A stretch of DNA of 64,000 nt from Armatimonadota bacterium (GTDB lineage Bacteria > Armatimonadota > Zipacnadia > Zipacnadales > UBA5352). Position 1 is the stretch's first letter, and the number at the start of each line of letters is the position of its first letter. The position numbers and the translations under genes were made by a program. The DNA lies in assembly GCA_034722055.1 (NCBI GenBank), contig JAYENL010000242.1, positions 32,001-96,000 of the forward strand, in the 5' to 3' direction. Of the stretch, positions 1 to 12,982 are shown piece after piece. The notes under the pieces were generated by a model. It was not told the DNA's origin. It ran no database searches and worked only from the letters and a program-made list of their open reading frames with translations.

Positions 1-503
1 GCGCTGGCCATCGGCGTGTGATACTCGATGCCACCCAGGTCGCCGCCCCGGACGGTGACCGGCGGCAGGCATCGCTCTCCCCGGCCCTGCACGCGCCCCC
101 CCATCAGCTCCAGGGGCCTCGCGATGCGGTCCATGGGCCGCTGGGAGAGAGACTCATCGCCGGCCAAGGTGACCTCGAAGGGGCGGCCGGCCACCAGCCC
201 CATCATCAGCCGCATCCCGGTGGCGGAGTTGCCCATCTCCAGCGGCTGGTCGGGCTCTTGAAGGCCGTCGAGGCCTGCGCCGTGGACCTCCAGCGTCTCG
301 GTGCCGATGGGCTCGATGTGCACGCCCATCGCCCGGAGGGCCTCGGCGGTGCGCAGGCAGTCATCGCACTCGAGAAAGCCCTCGATGCGAGCGATGCCCG
401 TGGCAATGGAGGAGAGCATCGCCGCCCGGTGAGAGATGGACTTGTCGCCTGGCGGCCGTATTGACCCTGAGAGTCGCTCGCAAGGCCGCACTCGCAGCCT
501 CAT
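1..503 (-). CDS. aroA: 3-phosphoshikimate 1-carboxyvinyltransferase (EPSP synthase), 5' part; runs off the window
   Basis: Not in the ORF track. Manual translation from ATG at 503 gives MRLRVRPCERLSGSIRPPGDKSISHRAAM, with the conserved PGDKSISHRA motif. The ATGA start overlaps the tyrA stop. Confidence 0.95.
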   Translation of the reverse strand, partial: MRLRVRPCERLSGSIRPPGDKSISHRAAMLSSIATGIARIEGFLECDDCLRTAEALRAMGVHIEPIGTETLEVHGAGLDGLQEPDQPLEMGNSATGMRLMMGLVAGRPFEVTLAGDESLSQRPMDRIARPLELMGGRVQGRGERCLPPVTVRGGDLGGIEYHTPMAS

Positions 504-1360
504 GTCTCAGCCATCCTCTCTCGCCGCCGGCGAGCCTCCGCCAGCAGCGCCGTCAGCGCATCCTCATCCCCGGCGCGCAGCGCCTCCCGGTACCGCTCCG
601 CCTCCTCAAGGAGCTCATCCAGCGCCGCCAGCACCTCGTCGGCGTTCGTCAGCAGGATCTCCCGCCACACCTCCACCGGGCCGGCAGCGATGCGCGTCGT
701 ATCCCGCAGCCCGCCGCCCACGAAGGCATGGTCCTCGGCGGCATCGCCCAGCGCCCCGCACAGAGCCGCCGCAACCAGGTGCGGCAGATGGCTGGTGCGG
801 GCGACGATGCGGTCGTGCGTCTCCGCGTCAACGACCACTGGCCGGGCCCCCAGGGCCTCGACGATATCGCGCATGCGTGTGAGGGCCGCCTCGCCGCCTG
901 GCTGCGGCGTGAGCAGCCAGGCGCTGCCCCGGAAGAGGTCAGCGCGAGCAGCGGCGATGCCGGCTCGCTCCGAGCCGGCCATGGGGTGGCCGCCCACGAA
1001 GTCAACGCCGTCGGGCAGCCCGCGAGCGGCCTCCATGATCCGCCGCTTGGTGCTGCCGGCGTCCGTCACCAGGCAGCCCTCGGCCACCGCAGGTCCGATG
1101 GCGTTGATGATCTCGGGGATGGCCGCCACCGGGGTGGCGATGAACACCATCTCGGCCTCGCGCACCGCCTCGACGGGATCACGCGTGGTGGCATCCGCGG
1201 CCCCGCAAACCACGGCCTCCCGGAGCGTCTCCGCTGAGCGCGCCACGCCCACGACCTCGCGCAGGATCCCCGCCTCTCGACCCGCCAGCGCAAAGGAGCC
1301 GCCGATCAGCCCGATGCCGATGACAGCCGTGCGGCTGAAGCGCGTGCCCTCCACGGCCAT
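500..1360 (-). CDS. tyrA: Prephenate/arogenate dehydrogenase
   Basis: GIGLIGGS Rossmann motif, TDAGSTK, GGHPMAGSE, SHLPH, LRDTTRIA. Confidence 0.95.
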   Translation of the reverse strand: MAVEGTRFSRTAVIGIGLIGGSFALAGREAGILREVVGVARSAETLREAVVCGAADATTRDPVEAVREAEMVFIATPVAAIPEIINAIGPAVAEGCLVTDAGSTKRRIMEAARGLPDGVDFVGGHPMAGSERAGIAAARADLFRGSAWLLTPQPGGEAALTRMRDIVEALGARPVVVDAETHDRIVARTSHLPHLVAAALCGALGDAAEDHAFVGGGLRDTTRIAAGPVEVWREILLTNADEVLAALDELLEEAERYREALRAGDEDALTALLAEARRRRERMAET

Positions 1361-1373
1361 CGGCTCGCCTCCC

Positions 1374-2396
1374 TCATATCTCGCGCCCGACCGCCTCCGC
1401 GACCGTCCGGATCTGCTTCATCAGATCCGCGAACCCCGCCGGGGTCAGGGACTGCGGACCATCGCTGAGAGCCTGATCCGGCCGCGGATGCACCTCCACG
1501 AGCAGCCCGTCGGCGCCGGCCGCCACCGCCGCCAGGGCCATCTGCGGCACCAGGGAGCTGACGCCCACAGCGTGGCTGGGGTCAGCCAGGATGGGCAGGA
1601 AGGTCTCCCGCCGCGCCGCCGCCATCCCCCCCAGGTCCAGGGTGAAGCGCGTGGACGTCTCGAAGGTGCGGATGCCGCGCTCGCAGAGGATGATGTCCAG
1701 CGTCCCCGCGGCGGCGATGTACTCGCAGGCCTTCAGCCACTCCTCGACGGTGGACGAGAAGCCGCGCTTGAGCATCACCGGCCTCCCGGAGCGGCCGGCC
1801 TCCTTCAGCAGGTCGTAGTTCTGCATGTTCCGAGCACCGATCTGCAGGCAGTCGGCCAGCTCCGCCACCCGCTCCACCTGCCGCACGTCCATGACCTCGG
1901 TGACCACCGGCAGCCCGGTCTCCTCCCGGGCCTCGGCCAGCAACTCCAGTCCCTCCGGGCCCAGCCCCTGGAAGCTGTAGGGCGACGTCCGCGGTTTGAA
2001 GGCGCCGCCGCGCAGCGCGGCGGCGCCGGCCTCCGCCACGGCCCGGGCGGTCTGCATGACCTGCTCCCGGCTCTCCACCGAGCAGGGCCCGGCGATCACA
2101 CCCAGGTGTCCCGCCCCGATGCGCCTGTCGCCGAGCATCACCGACGAGGGCCTCGGGTTGTGCTCCCGGCTGATGAGCTTGTAGGGCTTGAGAACCGGCA
2201 CCACGCGCTCGACGCCCGGCAGCACCGAGAACTGGCCCGCCACGACCTCCTTCTCGTGGTCCGGCGCGCCGATGGCGCCGATGATGGTGCGCTCCTCGCC
2301 CCGGGAGATATGGTGGCCGTAGCCACGCTCCGCCAGGCGCTTCACGACCTGCTCCACGTCCTCATCAGTGCTGTCTCGACGCATGACTACGATCAT
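1374..2396 (-). CDS. aroF: DAHP synthase, class I-beta, with N-terminal regulatory domain
   Basis: [58 protein letters not shown]. Confidence 0.95.
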
Positions 2397-2416: not shown

Positions 2417-3529
2417 TCACTGCTCGGGGCGCTCCGCCAGCACCTGGCGCAGCGCCGCGATGAAGGTCTCGTTCTGCTCCGGCGTGCCGATGGTCACCCG
2501 GATCCACTCCGGGAAGCCGAAGATCTCGCCGGTGCGCACCGTCACACCGTGGCGCATCAGGGCGTCGAAGCACGCCACGCTGTCCATGCCAACCTCAACG
2601 AAGATGAAGTTCGCCTGCGTCGGGATATACTCGAGCCCCATCTTGTCGAACTGCCCGTAGAGGTACTGCTTGCCGGCGCGGTTGTTCGCCACGCTCCTGG
2701 GCACCTGGTCTGGGTCGCGGAGGCTGGCCAGCGCCGCTGTCTGGGCCACCGACGCGACATTGAAGGGCTCCCGCACCTGCTTGAGCGCGCTGGCGATGTC
2801 CACCGGCGCGATGCCGTAGCCGATGCGCAGGCCGGCCAGGGCGAAGGCCTTCGAGAAGGTGCGCAGCACCGCGCACCGGGCGCCCTCCCGCACGTGCTGC
2901 AGTGTGTCCGGATAGGCCGGGTCATCGACGTACTCGAAGTAGGCCTCATCGAAGACCACGATGCAGGTGTCCGGCACGCGGTCCATAAAGGCCGCAACCT
3001 CATCGGCGGTCACGATGGTGCCGAGCGGGTTGTAGGGGTTGGAGATGAACACCAGCTTCGTGCGCTCGGTCACCGCCTCGGCCATGGCATCGAGATCGTG
3101 TCGGAAGTCCCGAGCAGGCACCACAACCTCCTCGGCGGCCATCAGCCGGGCGGTGTAGGGGTAGATGGCGAAGGCCGGGTCGGAGAAGACCAGGTTGTCG
3201 CCGGGATCGACGAAGGCCAGCCCCAGGTAGTGCAGAATCTCGTCCGAGCCGCGGCCCACGACGATGGTGTCCGGGTCCACGTCCAGCATCTCCGCCAGCG
3301 CCTCCGTCAGCTCCACACACTGCGGGTCGGGGTAGGAGAGCACCTCCGAGGCCGCATCCTGCATTGCCTGCACAGCCAGCGGCGAGGGCCCGAGCGGGTT
3401 CTCATTGGACGCCAGCTTGGTGACCCTCTCGATGCCCAGCTCCGCCATGACCTCCGCGGAGGACTTGCCCGGGGAGTAGGGCACGATGCGCTTGACGGTC
3501 TCGCGGATCAGCTCGTCTGCCTCGGCCAC
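2417..3529 (-). CDS. hisC: Histidinol-phosphate/aromatic aminotransferase
   Basis: KLASNENPLGPSP, NPYNPLG, DEAYFEY, LRTFSKAFALAGLRIGY. Confidence 0.93.
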   Translation of the reverse strand: MAEADELIRETVKRIVPYSPGKSSAEVMAELGIERVTKLASNENPLGPSPLAVQAMQDAASEVLSYPDPQCVELTEALAEMLDVDPDTIVVGRGSDEILHYLGLAFVDPGDNLVFSDPAFAIYPYTARLMAAEEVVVPARDFRHDLDAMAEAVTERTKLVFISNPYNPLGTIVTADEVAAFMDRVPDTCIVVFDEAYFEYVDDPAYPDTLQHVREGARCAVLRTFSKAFALAGLRIGYGIAPVDIASALKQVREPFNVASVAQTAALASLRDPDQVPRSVANNRAGKQYLYGQFDKMGLEYIPTQANFIFVEVGMDSVACFDALMRHGVTVRTGEIFGFPEWIRVTIGTPEQNETFIAALRQVLAERPEQ

Positions 3530-3557: not shown

Positions 3558-4538
3558 TCACTCGGAGCTCTGGCTGACGATCTCGCTGAGCAGTCGGCTG
3601 ACGGAGCGGTCCTCGTGAATGCAGCGCAGCGCCTCCGCCAGCAGCGGCGCCACGGAGACCACCGTCACGTTGTCAGGCGCCTCAGGGCGCGTGGGGATGG
3701 TGTCGGTGGTGTAGAGCGTCCGGATGTCGGACTTGCCGATCAGCTCCGGGGCGTCTCCACACATGATGGCGTGCGTCACGCACGCGTTGACCTCGGTGGC
3801 GCCCGCCTCCATGACCTCTGAGGCTGCGTTGACGATGGTGCTGCCGCTGAAGATGAAGTCATCCACCAGCAGCGCGCGCATGCCGTCGAGGTCACCGACG
3901 CTCTCGACGGTCCGCGCCACCTCCACGTCCTCGTTTGGATGGCGTTTGAAGACAACCGCAATGTGGCAGCCCAGGCGCTGTGCAATCTCATCGGCCCGAT
4001 CCACGGCCCCGGCGTCGGGCGCCACGATGATGGTATTGGGGCCGGTCAGGCCCTCTCTGCGGAACACGTTGAGAAACACCGGCAGGTGCGGCAGGTGGTC
4101 TACGGGGATGTCGAAGAAGCCCTGGATGGCGCCCTCGTGCAGGTCCATGGTCACGATGCGATCCGCGCCGGCGGCCACAGTCAGGTCCGCCACCACCCGG
4201 GCGGAGATGGGCTCCCGGCCCCGGAACTTGCGCTCCTGCTTGGAGTACGGATACCAGGGGACGACGGCGGTGATGCGGCCCGCCGACGCCCGCTTGGCGG
4301 CGTCGATCATCAGCCACAGCTCCACCAGCCGGTCGCTGACCTGGTCGGGGAAGGACTGGAAGATGAAGACGTCCTTCCCGCGCACGTTCTCCAGAAGCTG
4401 AATGCGGATCTCGTCGTTGGAGAACTTCGAGACGATGGCCTCCGAGACCCGAGTGCCCAGCGCCTCGGCCACATCGCTCGAAAGCTGCACACTCCCGTTG
4501 CCCGTGAATATGCTCATGTCATCGAAAGCCGGACTCAT
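3558..4538 (-). CDS. prs: Ribose-phosphate pyrophosphokinase
   Basis: ENVRGKDVFIFQ, DAAKRASAGRITAVVPWYPYSKQERK, REPISAR, DLH..IQGFFDIPVD, VAPDAG, LLVDD. Confidence 0.93.
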   Translation of the reverse strand: MSPAFDDMSIFTGNGSVQLSSDVAEALGTRVSEAIVSKFSNDEIRIQLLENVRGKDVFIFQSFPDQVSDRLVELWLMIDAAKRASAGRITAVVPWYPYSKQERKFRGREPISARVVADLTVAAGADRIVTMDLHEGAIQGFFDIPVDHLPHLPVFLNVFRREGLTGPNTIIVAPDAGAVDRADEIAQRLGCHIAVVFKRHPNEDVEVARTVESVGDLDGMRALLVDDFIFSGSTIVNAASEVMEAGATEVNACVTHAIMCGDAPELIGKSDIRTLYTTDTIPTRPEAPDNVTVVSVAPLLAEALRCIHEDRSVSRLLSEIVSQSSE

Positions 4539-4591
4539 GCCTGTGGACTCCCGTTCATGGATGATCTCGCCGACGGCCGGCCCCCTGACAG

Positions 4592-4622
4592 AAAAAACGC
4601 CGCGGGTTGGCGCCGCGGCGTT
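4592..4622 (-). terminator. Intrinsic terminator (attenuator) in the prs leader
   Basis: Minus strand AACGCCGCGG-CGCCAAC-CCGCGGCGTT-TTTT: 10-bp stem running into a T6 tract, 54 nt before the prs start. Confidence 0.85.
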
Positions 4623-4646
4623 GGGCTCTCCTGGGCTCGTGCAGTG

Positions 4647-4727
4647 CTAGCAGGACTCCCTCCGCCGCGGGTCAGACCCGTGGTAATAATGATGGCAGCG
4701 ACTGACTTGGTGGATGGCCATCGCCAT
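4647..4727 (-). CDS. Putative attenuator leader peptide MAMAIHQVSRCHHYYHGSDPRRRESC (start 4727 or 4721)
   Basis: Manually translated; CAT CAT TAT TAC CAC cluster; lies between a promoter and a terminator; GGGG 8 nt before the second ATG. Confidence 0.75.
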   Translation of the reverse strand: MAMAIHQVSRCHHYYHGSDPRRRESC

Positions 4728-4763
4728 ATCCCCGCGACGCAGGAGTGCAGCACGTTTGACGGT

Positions 4764-4792
4764 AAACTAACATAGCCCAGAGGCGCTGTCAA
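4764..4792 (-). promoter_or_regulatory. Sigma70-type promoter of the prs-hisC-aroF-tyrA-aroA operon
   Basis: TTGACA-17 nt-TAGTTT with extended -10 TG. Confidence 0.75.
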
Positions 4793-4910
4793 GGCGCCGT
4801 TCGGCGGCAAGCGGACACGCCGAACCGGGGAGTCCGACGGCGCCAGGACGTGCCGGCGGCTCTGAGCCGTGCGGCGTTCGCAGCCCGCCGGTGAGGATCG
4901 AGACTCACAC

Positions 4911-5270
4911 TCACTCCCGCCGCCGGCTGATCTCCACCTCGGCGTGGTCGATGAGCCCGCCCAGCGGGGCGCTCATCTTCCGCACCCGGACCGTGACCTC
5001 CTCCACGGGGAACTCAGCGAGGACCGCCTCGGCAATGTGGTGGGCGAAGGCCTCCAGGAGCCGGAAACGACTCTCCTCCTGAACGCGCGCCACGAGGTCG
5101 TACACAGCCTTATAGTCAACGGTGTCGGCCACGCTGTCGCTCACGCCGGCAGAGTGCAGGTCCAGACCCAGCTCCACATCCACGTGGAAGCGGCCACCGA
5201 GGTCCCGCTCGGACGCATCCACCCCGTGGTAGCCGTAGAAGCGCATGTTGTGAATGCGGATGATGTCCAT
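4911..5270 (-). CDS. folB: Dihydroneopterin aldolase
   Basis: MDIIRIHNMRFYGYHGV..ER..G.RF.VD, DTVDY, LLEAFA, VRVRK..APL. Confidence 0.93.
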   Translation of the reverse strand: MDIIRIHNMRFYGYHGVDASERDLGGRFHVDVELGLDLHSAGVSDSVADTVDYKAVYDLVARVQEESRFRLLEAFAHHIAEAVLAEFPVEEVTVRVRKMSAPLGGLIDHAEVEISRRRE

Positions 5271-5413
5271 GGCGTCAGCACAGGCGACAAGCTGCAGGCT
5301 AACAGCAAACGAAGGGGGAGGAGAGCCACGGGGCACAGACCGTCACGCGGACGCCGCAGGGGAGACGTGTGGGCTTCACGGCGCAGCTCATGACCGGAGA
5401 TTGGCGAACCGGC

Positions 5414-6907
5414 TCAGTCCTCCGACTGGCGCTTGGGGAGGATGGACCGGAAGGTGCTCCCCTGGCCGACCTCGGATTCGATCTCCATGTGGCCCCCGTG
5501 CGCCTCGGTCACGCGCCGGGTATAGACCATCCCCAGGCCGATACCACCGGCCTGCTTCTTGGACAGGTCGGTGCGGAATCCGGCCTCCTTGCCGATCTTC
5601 TCGACCGCCTCCGGAGGGATCCCGATGCCCTCGTCCGTGACCTCCATGACGACCATGTCGTCATCGGTCTCGTGGACCCGGACCGTAATGGTTGTGCCGG
5701 GGTCGGAATACTTGGCGGCATTCTTAAGGTAGTTGTCCAGAATCGAGGTGATTTTTCCGCGGTCACCCTCCATCATGAGCTCCTCGGGGGCCTCCACGTC
5801 CAGCTCATGACCCATGAGGTAATCCGCCAACTCCTCGAGGATCTGGTTGAGGGCCTCGACGAGGTCGAACTCCTCGACATCCAGCTCCAGCTCCTTGCCG
5901 GCGTGGATGCGGGAGATGTTGAGGGTCTCGGCGATCAGGCGGAACATGCGCGCCGACTGGATGAGGGCGGTGCCGATGAACTCGTCAATGATCTCCTGAT
6001 CCTCGGGGTGAACGCCGCCCTCGGTCATGGCCTCGATGGTCTGCAGATTCCCCTGGATGACCGTCAGCGGGGTGCGCAACTCGTGGGCCACCTGGCCCGT
6101 CAGTTCCTCAGCCGCAGTGCTGAAGGGTGACTGGGTGAAGGCCACGATGATCTGATCTTCCTGCGTTCGCTGAGCGCTGGCCGAGTAGCTCTCGTTGTCG
6201 CGCCCGACGAAGGCCGTGGCAGCGTTGCCCTCAGCGCTGTGCCTGACCTCCGCCACCAGCTCGGCGAGCTGCTGCCGGTAGTCAATGGCCTCAAGGCGCC
6301 GGCCCTGAAGTGGGTCTAGCCCCACCACCTGCATCGCGGCCGCGTTTGCCACAAGGACCTCTCTTGAGGGCCCCACAAGCATCAGCCCGACAGGCACGGT
6401 AGCGAAGGCGGCCTGGATGTCGTCGAACTCGTCAAGCTGCTCCTCGACCAACAGCGCCGCGGCCTGCCCCGAGAGCGTCTCCACCAGCTTGTAGTCGTCC
6501 TCGTCGTAGCGTTCCCCGCGCTTGGCCCACAGCGTGAGCACACCCACGGTGCGCTGGACGGGCTCCTCCTCGGCCTCCAGGGGCTCCCGTTCCCAGATGA
6601 TGGGCAGCACCAGCACGGGCGGATCGACGGTGACCTCGTCGATCCGCGTGCGTTCGGTGAGCACCACAGGGCCCTTCTGGGAGAGCGCATCGCTCACCGC
6701 CGCCGAGAAGGCGCTGGGGGTGTCGATGTCCACATGCCCCAACGAGTCGCTGGTTATCCCATCGCGCCGGCTCACCACCGCTTGGGGGTGCAGCCGGTTA
6801 TCGGCCACCCCCAGCGAGAAGCAGGCGGCACCATCCGTCTGGATGATCTGGGCGACCTTCTGTACGAAGCGGTCAAGTATTGCCGAGCGCACTGCGGTCA
6901 CCTGCAT
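5414..6907 (-). CDS. Cytoplasmic GAF/PAS sensor histidine kinase
   Basis: H-box VAHELRTPLT, N-box NYLKNAAKYS, DEGIGI, GGIGLG; N-terminal GAF- and PAS-like segments; no obvious TM helix. Confidence 0.88.
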   Translation of the reverse strand: MQVTAVRSAILDRFVQKVAQIIQTDGAACFSLGVADNRLHPQAVVSRRDGITSDSLGHVDIDTPSAFSAAVSDALSQKGPVVLTERTRIDEVTVDPPVLVLPIIWEREPLEAEEEPVQRTVGVLTLWAKRGERYDEDDYKLVETLSGQAAALLVEEQLDEFDDIQAAFATVPVGLMLVGPSREVLVANAAAMQVVGLDPLQGRRLEAIDYRQQLAELVAEVRHSAEGNAATAFVGRDNESYSASAQRTQEDQIIVAFTQSPFSTAAEELTGQVAHELRTPLTVIQGNLQTIEAMTEGGVHPEDQEIIDEFIGTALIQSARMFRLIAETLNISRIHAGKELELDVEEFDLVEALNQILEELADYLMGHELDVEAPEELMMEGDRGKITSILDNYLKNAAKYSDPGTTITVRVHETDDDMVVMEVTDEGIGIPPEAVEKIGKEAGFRTDLSKKQAGGIGLGMVYTRRVTEAHGGHMEIESEVGQGSTFRSILPKRQSED

Positions 6908-11716: not shown

Positions 11717-12982
11717 CTACTCGGCGGCAATTCCCGAGGGTCTGTCGGCCAGCTCCGCGGCGCCGCTCGGGCGCACGTAGACCGCGAGGAGGATGGCGCT
11801 GACGAGCTGCGCCGCGCCCATGAACACGAAGGGCCAGCGCATGCCCGTCCACGACGCCATCACGCCGCCCGCCAGCGGCCCAAGGGCGAAGCCCAGGCAC
11901 ATCGCCGCTGTGGTGACGCCGAAGGCCCGCCCGTACATGTCGGCCGAGACGCTGGCGCTGATCATAGCGTTCATGGCCGGTCGGCCACCGCCCGCCACCA
12001 GGCCCCAGCCGATGCGCAGCCCGAAGAGCTGCGAGAGCGCCTGGACGATAGCGTGGGGGGCGCTGAAGAGCGCCGAGAGACCCGTGGAGGCGATCAGCAC
12101 ACGGCGGTGACCAATGCGGTCGCTGATCCGGCCCACCAGCAGGCAGCTCAGCCCCGCCGCCAGCCCGCCCAGCCCCATGAGCTGGCCGGTCACCGTCGCG
12201 GCCCTGGCGGTGTCGGCGATGCGCTCCACGAACAGCGGGAAGATCGGCCCCACAAACGTGACCGCGAAGGCGGTCAGGAAGAAGACCAGCAGCAGGGCTC
12301 CCAGGCCCTTGCCGCCGAAGACCTGCCGGAGGCCGTGGTTCCCGCTGGCGCACTGCTCAGGGGGCACGAAGCTCTCCCGGGCCCCAACCACCACCACGAA
12401 CCCCGCCAGCGCCCACATGGCGCCGCAGACGAAGAACGGGATTCGGTAGCCATAGGCGTCAGCGACCGCCCCGCCGATCCATGGCCCCAGGGCGTTCCCG
12501 AGGATAAGCGCGGTCTGCATCACGCCCATCGTGAAGCCCAGTCGGTCCCGAGGCGTCACACTCGCCACGAGGGTGTTGCATGCCGCGCCAGTGCCGGTCA
12601 GGGCGCCCTGGATGAATCGGAGGACCACAAGCTGGGGCACGGTCTGCGCGAAGCCCATCAGCGCGATCATCACCGCGCCGCCGAACATCGCCCGCTCCAG
12701 CATCAGCTTGCGGCCGTAGCGGTCCGCCAGGCTCCCCCAGATGGGCGAGAAGATGGTGAGGCTCAGCCCTGCCGCGGTCATGGCCGCGCCGGCCCACACG
12801 GCCACCAGGCGGTCGTCGGTCACCCCCAGCTCCCGCACGAAGAACGGCAGGAAGGGCATCACGAACGAGAAGCCCACGGCGCTCAGCAGGTGGGCGAACC
12901 AGACAGCATAGACCGTCCGCTGCCAGTGGGGGTCAGGGGGTTCGTCGGACTCTCCGCTCTGGGGTGACGGCTCAGTGGTCAT
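11717..12982 (-). CDS. MFS transporter (MdtG/DHA1-like)
   Basis: PFLPFFVRELGV, motif A WGSLADRYGRK, repeated GRISDRIGHRR; about 12 hydrophobic segments. Confidence 0.92.
   Translation of the reverse strand: MTTEPSPQSGESDEPPDPHWQRTVYAVWFAHLLSAVGFSFVMPFLPFFVRELGVTDDRLVAVWAGAAMTAAGLSLTIFSPIWGSLADRYGRKLMLERAMFGGAVMIALMGFAQTVPQLVVLRFIQGALTGTGAACNTLVASVTPRDRLGFTMGVMQTALILGNALGPWIGGAVADAYGYRIPFFVCGAMWALAGFVVVVGARESFVPPEQCASGNHGLRQVFGGKGLGALLLVFFLTAFAVTFVGPIFPLFVERIADTARAATVTGQLMGLGGLAAGLSCLLVGRISDRIGHRRVLIASTGLSALFSAPHAIVQALSQLFGLRIGWGLVAGGGRPAMNAMISASVSADMYGRAFGVTTAAMCLGFALGPLAGGVMASWTGMRWPFVFMGAAQLVSAILLAVYVRPSGAAELADRPSGIAAE

Follow-up and report, generated by a model that had tools for sequence, protein, structure and literature searches.

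The transcribed region in front of prs in the window (the whole 64,000-nt stretch of Armatimonadota DNA analyzed here) can be read, with good confidence, as a ribosome-coupled transcription attenuator that responds to the charging of both His-tRNA and Tyr-tRNA, and that would admit RNA polymerase to the prs-hisC-aroF-tyrA-aroA operon when either is short. Judged from its sequence and those of its relatives, it is most likely a family-wide attenuator of the classical type working with an amino-acid pair that we did not find described, and we infer an OR-gate response to His or Tyr shortage. The original prediction had described a TTGACA-17-TAGTTT promoter, an ORF of 24-26 codons (4727/4721 to 4647) with HHYYH codons, the segment CCGCGGCG shortly after them, and a 10-bp terminator stem with T6 whose 5' arm is complementary to that segment, ahead of the five genes named above. 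All of these are present at the positions given for them, and the gene names agree with the NCBIfam best matches. Its claim of an attenuator layout is supported by conservation in 18/18 family leaders, but a fourth element had been overlooked, namely a 5' anti-antiterminator that includes the ribosome-binding site (Table 1).

Table 1. Positions in the window of the leader elements and of the operon genes that follow them.
Feature	Position	Strand	Basis or remark
-35 box TTGACA	4787..4792	-	Read from sequence; invariant in 18/18 family leaders
Extended -10 box TG-N-TAGTTT	4764..4772 (TAGTTT 4769-4764)	-	TG-N-TA-NN-T kept in 18/18
Segment 1, putative anti-antiterminator 5' strand: CUCCU 4745-4741 and CGCGG 4736-4732	4729..4745	-	Overlaps leader ribosome-binding site GGGGA 4733-4729
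Leader ORF, 24 aa, MAIHQVSRCHHYYHGSDPRRRESC	4647..4721	-	23-29 aa in 18/18 family genomes
Control codons CAT CAT TAT TAC CAC (His His Tyr Tyr His)	4680..4694	-	Sequence
Segment 2, CCGCGGCG-GA-GGGAGU	4655..4670 (CCGCGGCG = 4670-4663)	-	Partner of segment 1 (off state) or segment 3 (antiterminator)
Segment 3, CCC-AA-CGCCGCGG	4613..4627	-	Antiterminator 3' strand and terminator 5' arm
Intrinsic terminator 3:4	4592..4622 (stem 4622-4596)	-	10-bp stem, 7-nt loop, T6 to 4592
prs, ribose-phosphate diphosphokinase, first gene	3558..4538	-	NCBIfam best match over curated cut-off
hisC, histidinol-phosphate transaminase	2417..3529	-	NCBIfam best match over curated cut-off
aroF, DAHP synthase	1374..2396	-	NCBIfam best match over curated cut-off
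tyrA, prephenate/arogenate dehydrogenase family	500..1360	-	NCBIfam best match, below curated cut-off
aroA, EPSP synthase, 5' part; runs off window	1..503	-	NCBIfam best match, below curated cut-off

The two promoter boxes are separated by 17 nt in the window, and among the 18 family leaders by 17 nt in 16 and by 18 nt in two; transcription of the leader would start near position 4757. A promoter scan of the window did not call this promoter, because its -10 box matches the consensus at just three of six positions. As for the leader ORF, an in-frame ATG at 4727 would add two codons (4727-4647, MAMAIHQVSRCHHYYHGSDPRRRESC). The GGGGA motif lies 1 nt before that ATG and 7 nt before the one at 4721, and the position of the first ATG reads ATA in the same-genus genome. 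Since an ATG at 4727 leaves no room for a ribosome-binding site and is replaced in the same-genus genome, the true start is likely that at 4721. Besides the control codons, the leader holds another His codon at 4712-4710. Such a cluster is rare: of the 18,287 ORFs in the genome that start with ATG and span 15-40 aa, 2 have at least two His, at least two Tyr and at least five His plus Tyr in nine codons, and the leader is one of the two. Further upstream, folB (4911-5336, minus strand) ends 119 nt before the leader -35 box; some relatives have this gene next to the leader, but elsewhere it is inverted or displaced, so it does not belong to the leader unit. In one relative, a NiCo riboswitch above the gathering score (locus L016:1068-1163, minus strand) lies just upstream of the leader promoter, on the opposite strand.

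We then focused on the conservation of the leader within the family. A Prs search of 41 genomes yielded 17 other family genomes, and a pattern search gave 18 family genomes in all, from eight genera. The same leader is found directly before prs, with hisC next, in all 18, and its ATG, ribosome-binding site and stop codon are conserved throughout. Each leader has at least two His and at least two Tyr codons; before segment 2, His accounts for 59 and Tyr for 54 of 319 residues, which is 7.5 and 8.1 times the background (about 2% each in eight window proteins). This enrichment is frame-specific, with 6 and 8 such codons of 301 in the other two frames. Among the remaining residues, Phe (6 of 319) and Trp (4 of 319) are scarce, and Cys stands at 3.7 times the background. 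In 17/18 leaders the distance from segment 2 to the ORF stop is 21 nt; from the stop to segment 3 it is 25-29 nt. Both amino acids, the stop, segment 2 and the terminator are kept at fixed distances in 18/18 orthologous leaders. The original prediction had named a lack of His/Tyr codon conservation in such leaders as a refuting outcome, and on this count it is not refuted.

Synonymous variation is found throughout the His/Tyr codons (CAT 26, CAC 33, TAT 21, TAC 33). Position -7, counted in codons relative to segment 2, is His or Tyr in 18/18 with all four codons in use, and the two amino acids swap places. By comparison, segment 2 encodes its Pro by CCG in 18/18, and two further codons of the tail are CGG, each in 16/18, so that the PRRR tail is fixed at the codon level; this difference places an amino-acid constraint on the cluster and a nucleotide constraint on the helix. 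It is also conceivable, though unlikely, that the attenuator is real and that just one amino acid, Tyr or His, is in control, the other codons being tolerated neighbours one C/T transition apart. CAY and TAY indeed differ by a single transition, and one and the same position may hold His in some leaders and Tyr in others. Non-responsive Tyr codons in Corynebacterium glutamicum aroR (PMC11802643) and inert leader codons in Streptomyces ilvB (PMC1262725) offer precedents. Moreover, the chance that all leaders would keep two of each under neutral His/Tyr interchange is 0.003 when the 18 are taken as independent, and 0.09 with one leader per genus; retention of both amino acids would thus go only weakly beyond neutral interchange once kinship is considered. 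Nevertheless, a single sensed amino acid fits poorly with a minimum of two codons of each kind in every leader and nearly equal totals, with position -4, which is His in 13/18 and never Tyr, with position -10, which is Tyr in 11/18, and with the presence of genes of both pathways in the operon.

Far less probable is a functional peptide, acting by His/Cys metal binding or nascent-chain arrest, in a switch that answers a small ligand. The peptide is rich in His and Cys and its PRRRE tail is well conserved, but genera differ in how His and Tyr are ordered, the N-terminus is unconstrained, and Cys ends the peptide in 12/18 only. The codon-level fixation of the PRRR tail also counts against it, because the tail encodes strand 2 of the helix.

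The preferred reading, a ribosome-coupled attenuator, depends on the RNA elements of Table 1, which can form three mutually exclusive helices (1:2, 2:3 and 3:4). The terminator search found one terminator at the leader against 0.2 +/- 0.5 in shuffled sequences, and the window leader folds into helix 1:2 plus the terminator (z -2.15), with segment 1 paired to 4670-4656. An RNAalifold consensus of the family leaders gave the same combination, 1:2 with 3:4, unprompted. In helix 1:2, CUCCU or CUCCC and the GCGG of the ribosome-binding site are paired to CCGCG...GGGAG, and both sides have changed at three of the five pairs of the outer helix (compensatory; 18 leaders). Over the whole consensus structure, eight cells changed on both sides, as compared to 2.3 in shuffles, and none of 500 shuffles scored as high. 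The terminator helix is paired in 98% of alignment cells, CGCCGCGG is invariant in 18/18, and many family relatives have a short or interrupted U tract. A local 4-bp hairpin also covers the ribosome-binding site (columns 53-56 against 75-78); it is 93% paired and showed no covariation in the family alignment.

The antiterminator 2:3 consists of 8 bp, a 2x2 loop and three more pairs; it formed in 18/18 partial folds (-23 to -36 kcal/mol), and is paired in 94% of alignment cells. Across the 18 leaders it had no compensatory changes and did not rise above shuffles, being conserved by invariance only. A near-invariant core without covariation is what would be expected where one strand must fit two partners, but it is no positive proof. 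The leader alignment that the original prediction had proposed as a check was accordingly borne out for the conserved His/Tyr cluster and, through compensatory changes, for the structure 1:2 plus 3:4, but not for covariation in the antiterminator.

Invariance of this kind, seen in the CCGCGG cores and in the GA of segment 2, could also point to an incidental ORF within a conserved protein- or ligand-binding RNA switch, such as a T-box or a riboswitch, and four T-box-like matches are found elsewhere in the genome, all under the gathering score. We consider this slightly more improbable than a functional peptide, as there was no Rfam match at E<=10 over window positions 4000-5600 or on the leader in five relatives, and the His/Tyr enrichment is frame-specific, with start, ribosome-binding site and stop all conserved. 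The codons for His and for Tyr are of the NAY type, and sensing of queuosine modification, or of the speed at which GUN-anticodon tRNAs (those for His, Tyr, Asn and Asp) decode, rather than charging, was rejected as the least credible reading of all, because Asn plus Asp make up 6 of 319 leader residues (0.2 times the background) and the downstream genes belong to the His and Tyr pathways.

In the attenuation mechanism that we propose, a ribosome that halts at any of the codons for His or Tyr would have a footprint ending just short of segment 2; with segment 2 free, 2:3 would form as segment 3 emerges, and the terminator would come too late to form. A run-on ribosome would cover segment 2, which would then pair behind the ribosome with segment 1, and with 1:2 closed, 3:4 would form and transcription would end near 4592. 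Helix 1:2 would in addition hide the ribosome-binding site of the leader. This geometry was modelled on transcripts ending after segment 3, with the ribosome assumed to cover -18/+12 nt about the A site. With codons -17 to -4, counted from segment 2, in the A site, the mean modelled P(2:3) was 0.68-0.98. It was 0.82-0.98 at -4, 0.18-0.35 at -3, and 0 from -2, a zero that is true by construction under the ribosome mask. Position -4 is therefore the last at which the footprint model still permits 2:3, and 110 of the 113 His/Tyr codons lie there or earlier.

At full-length equilibrium, the terminator wins in 16/18 free leaders and, depending on the model, still in 12-17 of 18 with a stalled ribosome; the stalled window leader switches (P 2:3 = 0.99) only if upstream RNA is ignored. 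Folding with and without ribosome masking, as the original prediction had suggested, gave a mixed outcome: given the assumed footprint, a stall frees 2:3 at the decision point, but this is not reproduced at full-length equilibrium in most leaders. Because equilibrium favours the terminator even under stalling, the switch would have to rest on the order of folding, that is, on kinetics. Similarly, helix 1:2 would have to act kinetically, because 15/18 leaders favour 2:3 at the decision point when no ribosome is present.

The first four operon genes are separated by 28, 20 and 13 nt in turn, and the last two overlap by 4 nt. Past aroA come ORFs that we take to be cmk-like and acyltransferase-like, as named from their N-terminal sequences. 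Sensing of His would be explained by HisC, which is the sole close copy in the source genome (others are 26-29% identical), together with PRPP supply. Sensing of Tyr would be explained by AroF, TyrA and AroA, together with HisC as a putative aromatic aminotransferase, by analogy with HisC of Bacillus subtilis and Thermotoga maritima, which, according to PMC9309667, use both histidinol phosphate and aromatic substrates. A second aroF copy is present on contig C186 of the source genome.

When 55 Prs rows were placed in a tree, that of the operon and the only Prs found in family f7 formed one group (100/100), and the second Prs of the source family fell in a distant clade; the tree carries a long-branch warning. 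The operon Prs is probably the main PRPP synthetase of the family and not a histidine-dedicated copy. If so, basal read-through of the attenuator would be needed, and the weak U tracts would fit such a need. The operon Prs (L001-L022) shows conserved departures from the B. subtilis motifs, with YSKQERK for YARQDRK and DDFIFSGST for DDIIDTAGT, and just generic Prs clusters were found for it in the ESM Atlas. A Prs search of the genome contigs gave, among the matches listed, only distant Prs (42-49%). The second, very divergent Prs clade (DDEI motif; contig C112 3172-4101; L195-L210) is represented in the source family and also in several others within the order.

Based on these data we advance, tentatively and at rather less than even confidence, a broader interpretation in which the main PRPP synthetase, and not the his operon, is under the His-or-Tyr attenuator. 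PRPP, together with the HisC that both pathways share, would be the route by which His supply is steered. A single leader of 24 codons would couple two unrelated pathways and central PRPP supply by means of a helix that shuts once the ribosome has passed, masking the leader start site. The leader would lend regulatory support to HisC serving both pathways, and would suggest amino-acid control of PRPP synthesis. It may also represent a natural two-input sensor and, since His and Tyr codons are one transition apart, a compact model for changes in attenuator specificity.

With regard to known systems, Rfam (His_leader, Trp_leader and other leader families) gave no match at E<=10 over window positions 4000-5600 and none on the leader in five relatives; the four weak matches to the T-box riboswitch (RF00230) in the genome include none on the leader's contig. 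Full-text searches covering the main text of mostly non-subscription papers showed no His/Tyr leader. Leaders mixing amino acids are known, and thrL combines Thr and Ile. The ilvB leaders mix Leu, Val and Ile (PMC1262725). Both kinds resemble the His/Tyr leader in reading several amino acids in one leader as an OR gate, but their amino acids share one branched pathway, whereas between His and Tyr the only links are HisC and the operon.

The His/Tyr leader is also similar to hisL of Escherichia coli and Salmonella, trpL and pheL (PMC1183508) in its short ORF with cognate codons, its exclusive 1:2, 2:3 and 3:4 helices, and its intrinsic terminator before the first gene. It differs in covering two amino acids of different pathways, in lacking an Rfam match and in belonging to a different phylum. 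Moreover, its helix 1:2 is long-range, enclosing the whole control region and the ribosome-binding site, and its segment 2 lies inside the ORF. Leader peptides ahead of DAHP synthase genes are represented by the C. glutamicum aroR leader before aroF, with Phe-Tyr-Phe and with no effect of Tyr supply on transcription (PMC11802643), and by the Phe uORF before Acholeplasma aroF, uORFC-13-1 (PMC8632094). These use Phe and no His, whereas Phe is rare in the His/Tyr leader.

The hisC-tyrA-aroA linkage itself is old, according to the available sections of PMC1173090, where hisHb-tyrA-aroF(=aroA) supraoperons share a gene core of a hisC-type aminotransferase, tyrA, EPSP synthase and cmk. Predicted attenuators are given there for some species, but those sections identify neither a leader peptide nor the amino acid that it would sense, and place no prs at the head. 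Shewanella leaders are single-pathway (PMC2659441). The His/Tyr leader would extend leader-peptide attenuation to a His/Tyr pair and to a poorly studied phylum, the Armatimonadota.

Beyond the family, the leader pattern was present in 17/17 family members and 1/61 others among 79 class genomes, but since the pattern was built from the family, the outside result shows just the absence of this form. A crude small-ORF scan of 40 tyrA loci, picked from 203 matches in other families, revealed no convincing His/Tyr leader; the same loci had a hisC match in 32 cases and prs in none. This distribution would be in agreement with a family-level origin of the device ahead of an older hisC-aroF-tyrA cluster. 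A pattern scan of metagenome contigs gave no His/Tyr ORF in any of the 121 matches listed (120 stretches), all of which look like chance G+C matches. In family f7, the region about 170 nt upstream of prs (L019-L022) has a shared promoter, after which comes a purine-led 5' leader that is rich in G+C and contains no His/Tyr ORF; it is possibly another cis element.

Attenuation appears to be in use elsewhere in the family, as a Trp-codon leader is conserved before trpE. In the source genome this leader, MSTDCCRQQVVLRWAWRWRRRVA, comes with a promoter and a terminator (contig C2, ~11,850-12,290; L132, L178), and WAWRW or WGWWW was found in 15/15 family loci holding the gene start, 17 having been examined (L179-L191, L194). 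The trpE-leader terminator ends in CCGCGGC, the same core as in the His/Tyr leader, hinting at either a shared origin or convergence. A genome-wide ORF-plus-terminator scan (seven matches) found no leader before pheA, hisG, the second aroF or the second prs, a scan that is not exhaustive, as it also missed the trp leader. The main his genes have no leader, the hisD-B-H-A-F cluster following dnaE directly with no gap. The his genes are split over contigs C321, C135, C5 and C93, with a second hisD on C135 and hisG alone on C93; the short contig C5, which is possibly foreign to the bin, carries another hisH-A-F set. Finally, the four T-box-like matches lie at C186:7163-7404, C324:173-482, C41:316-657 and C91:14196-14377, that on C186 being upstream of a tRNA-synthetase-like ORF.
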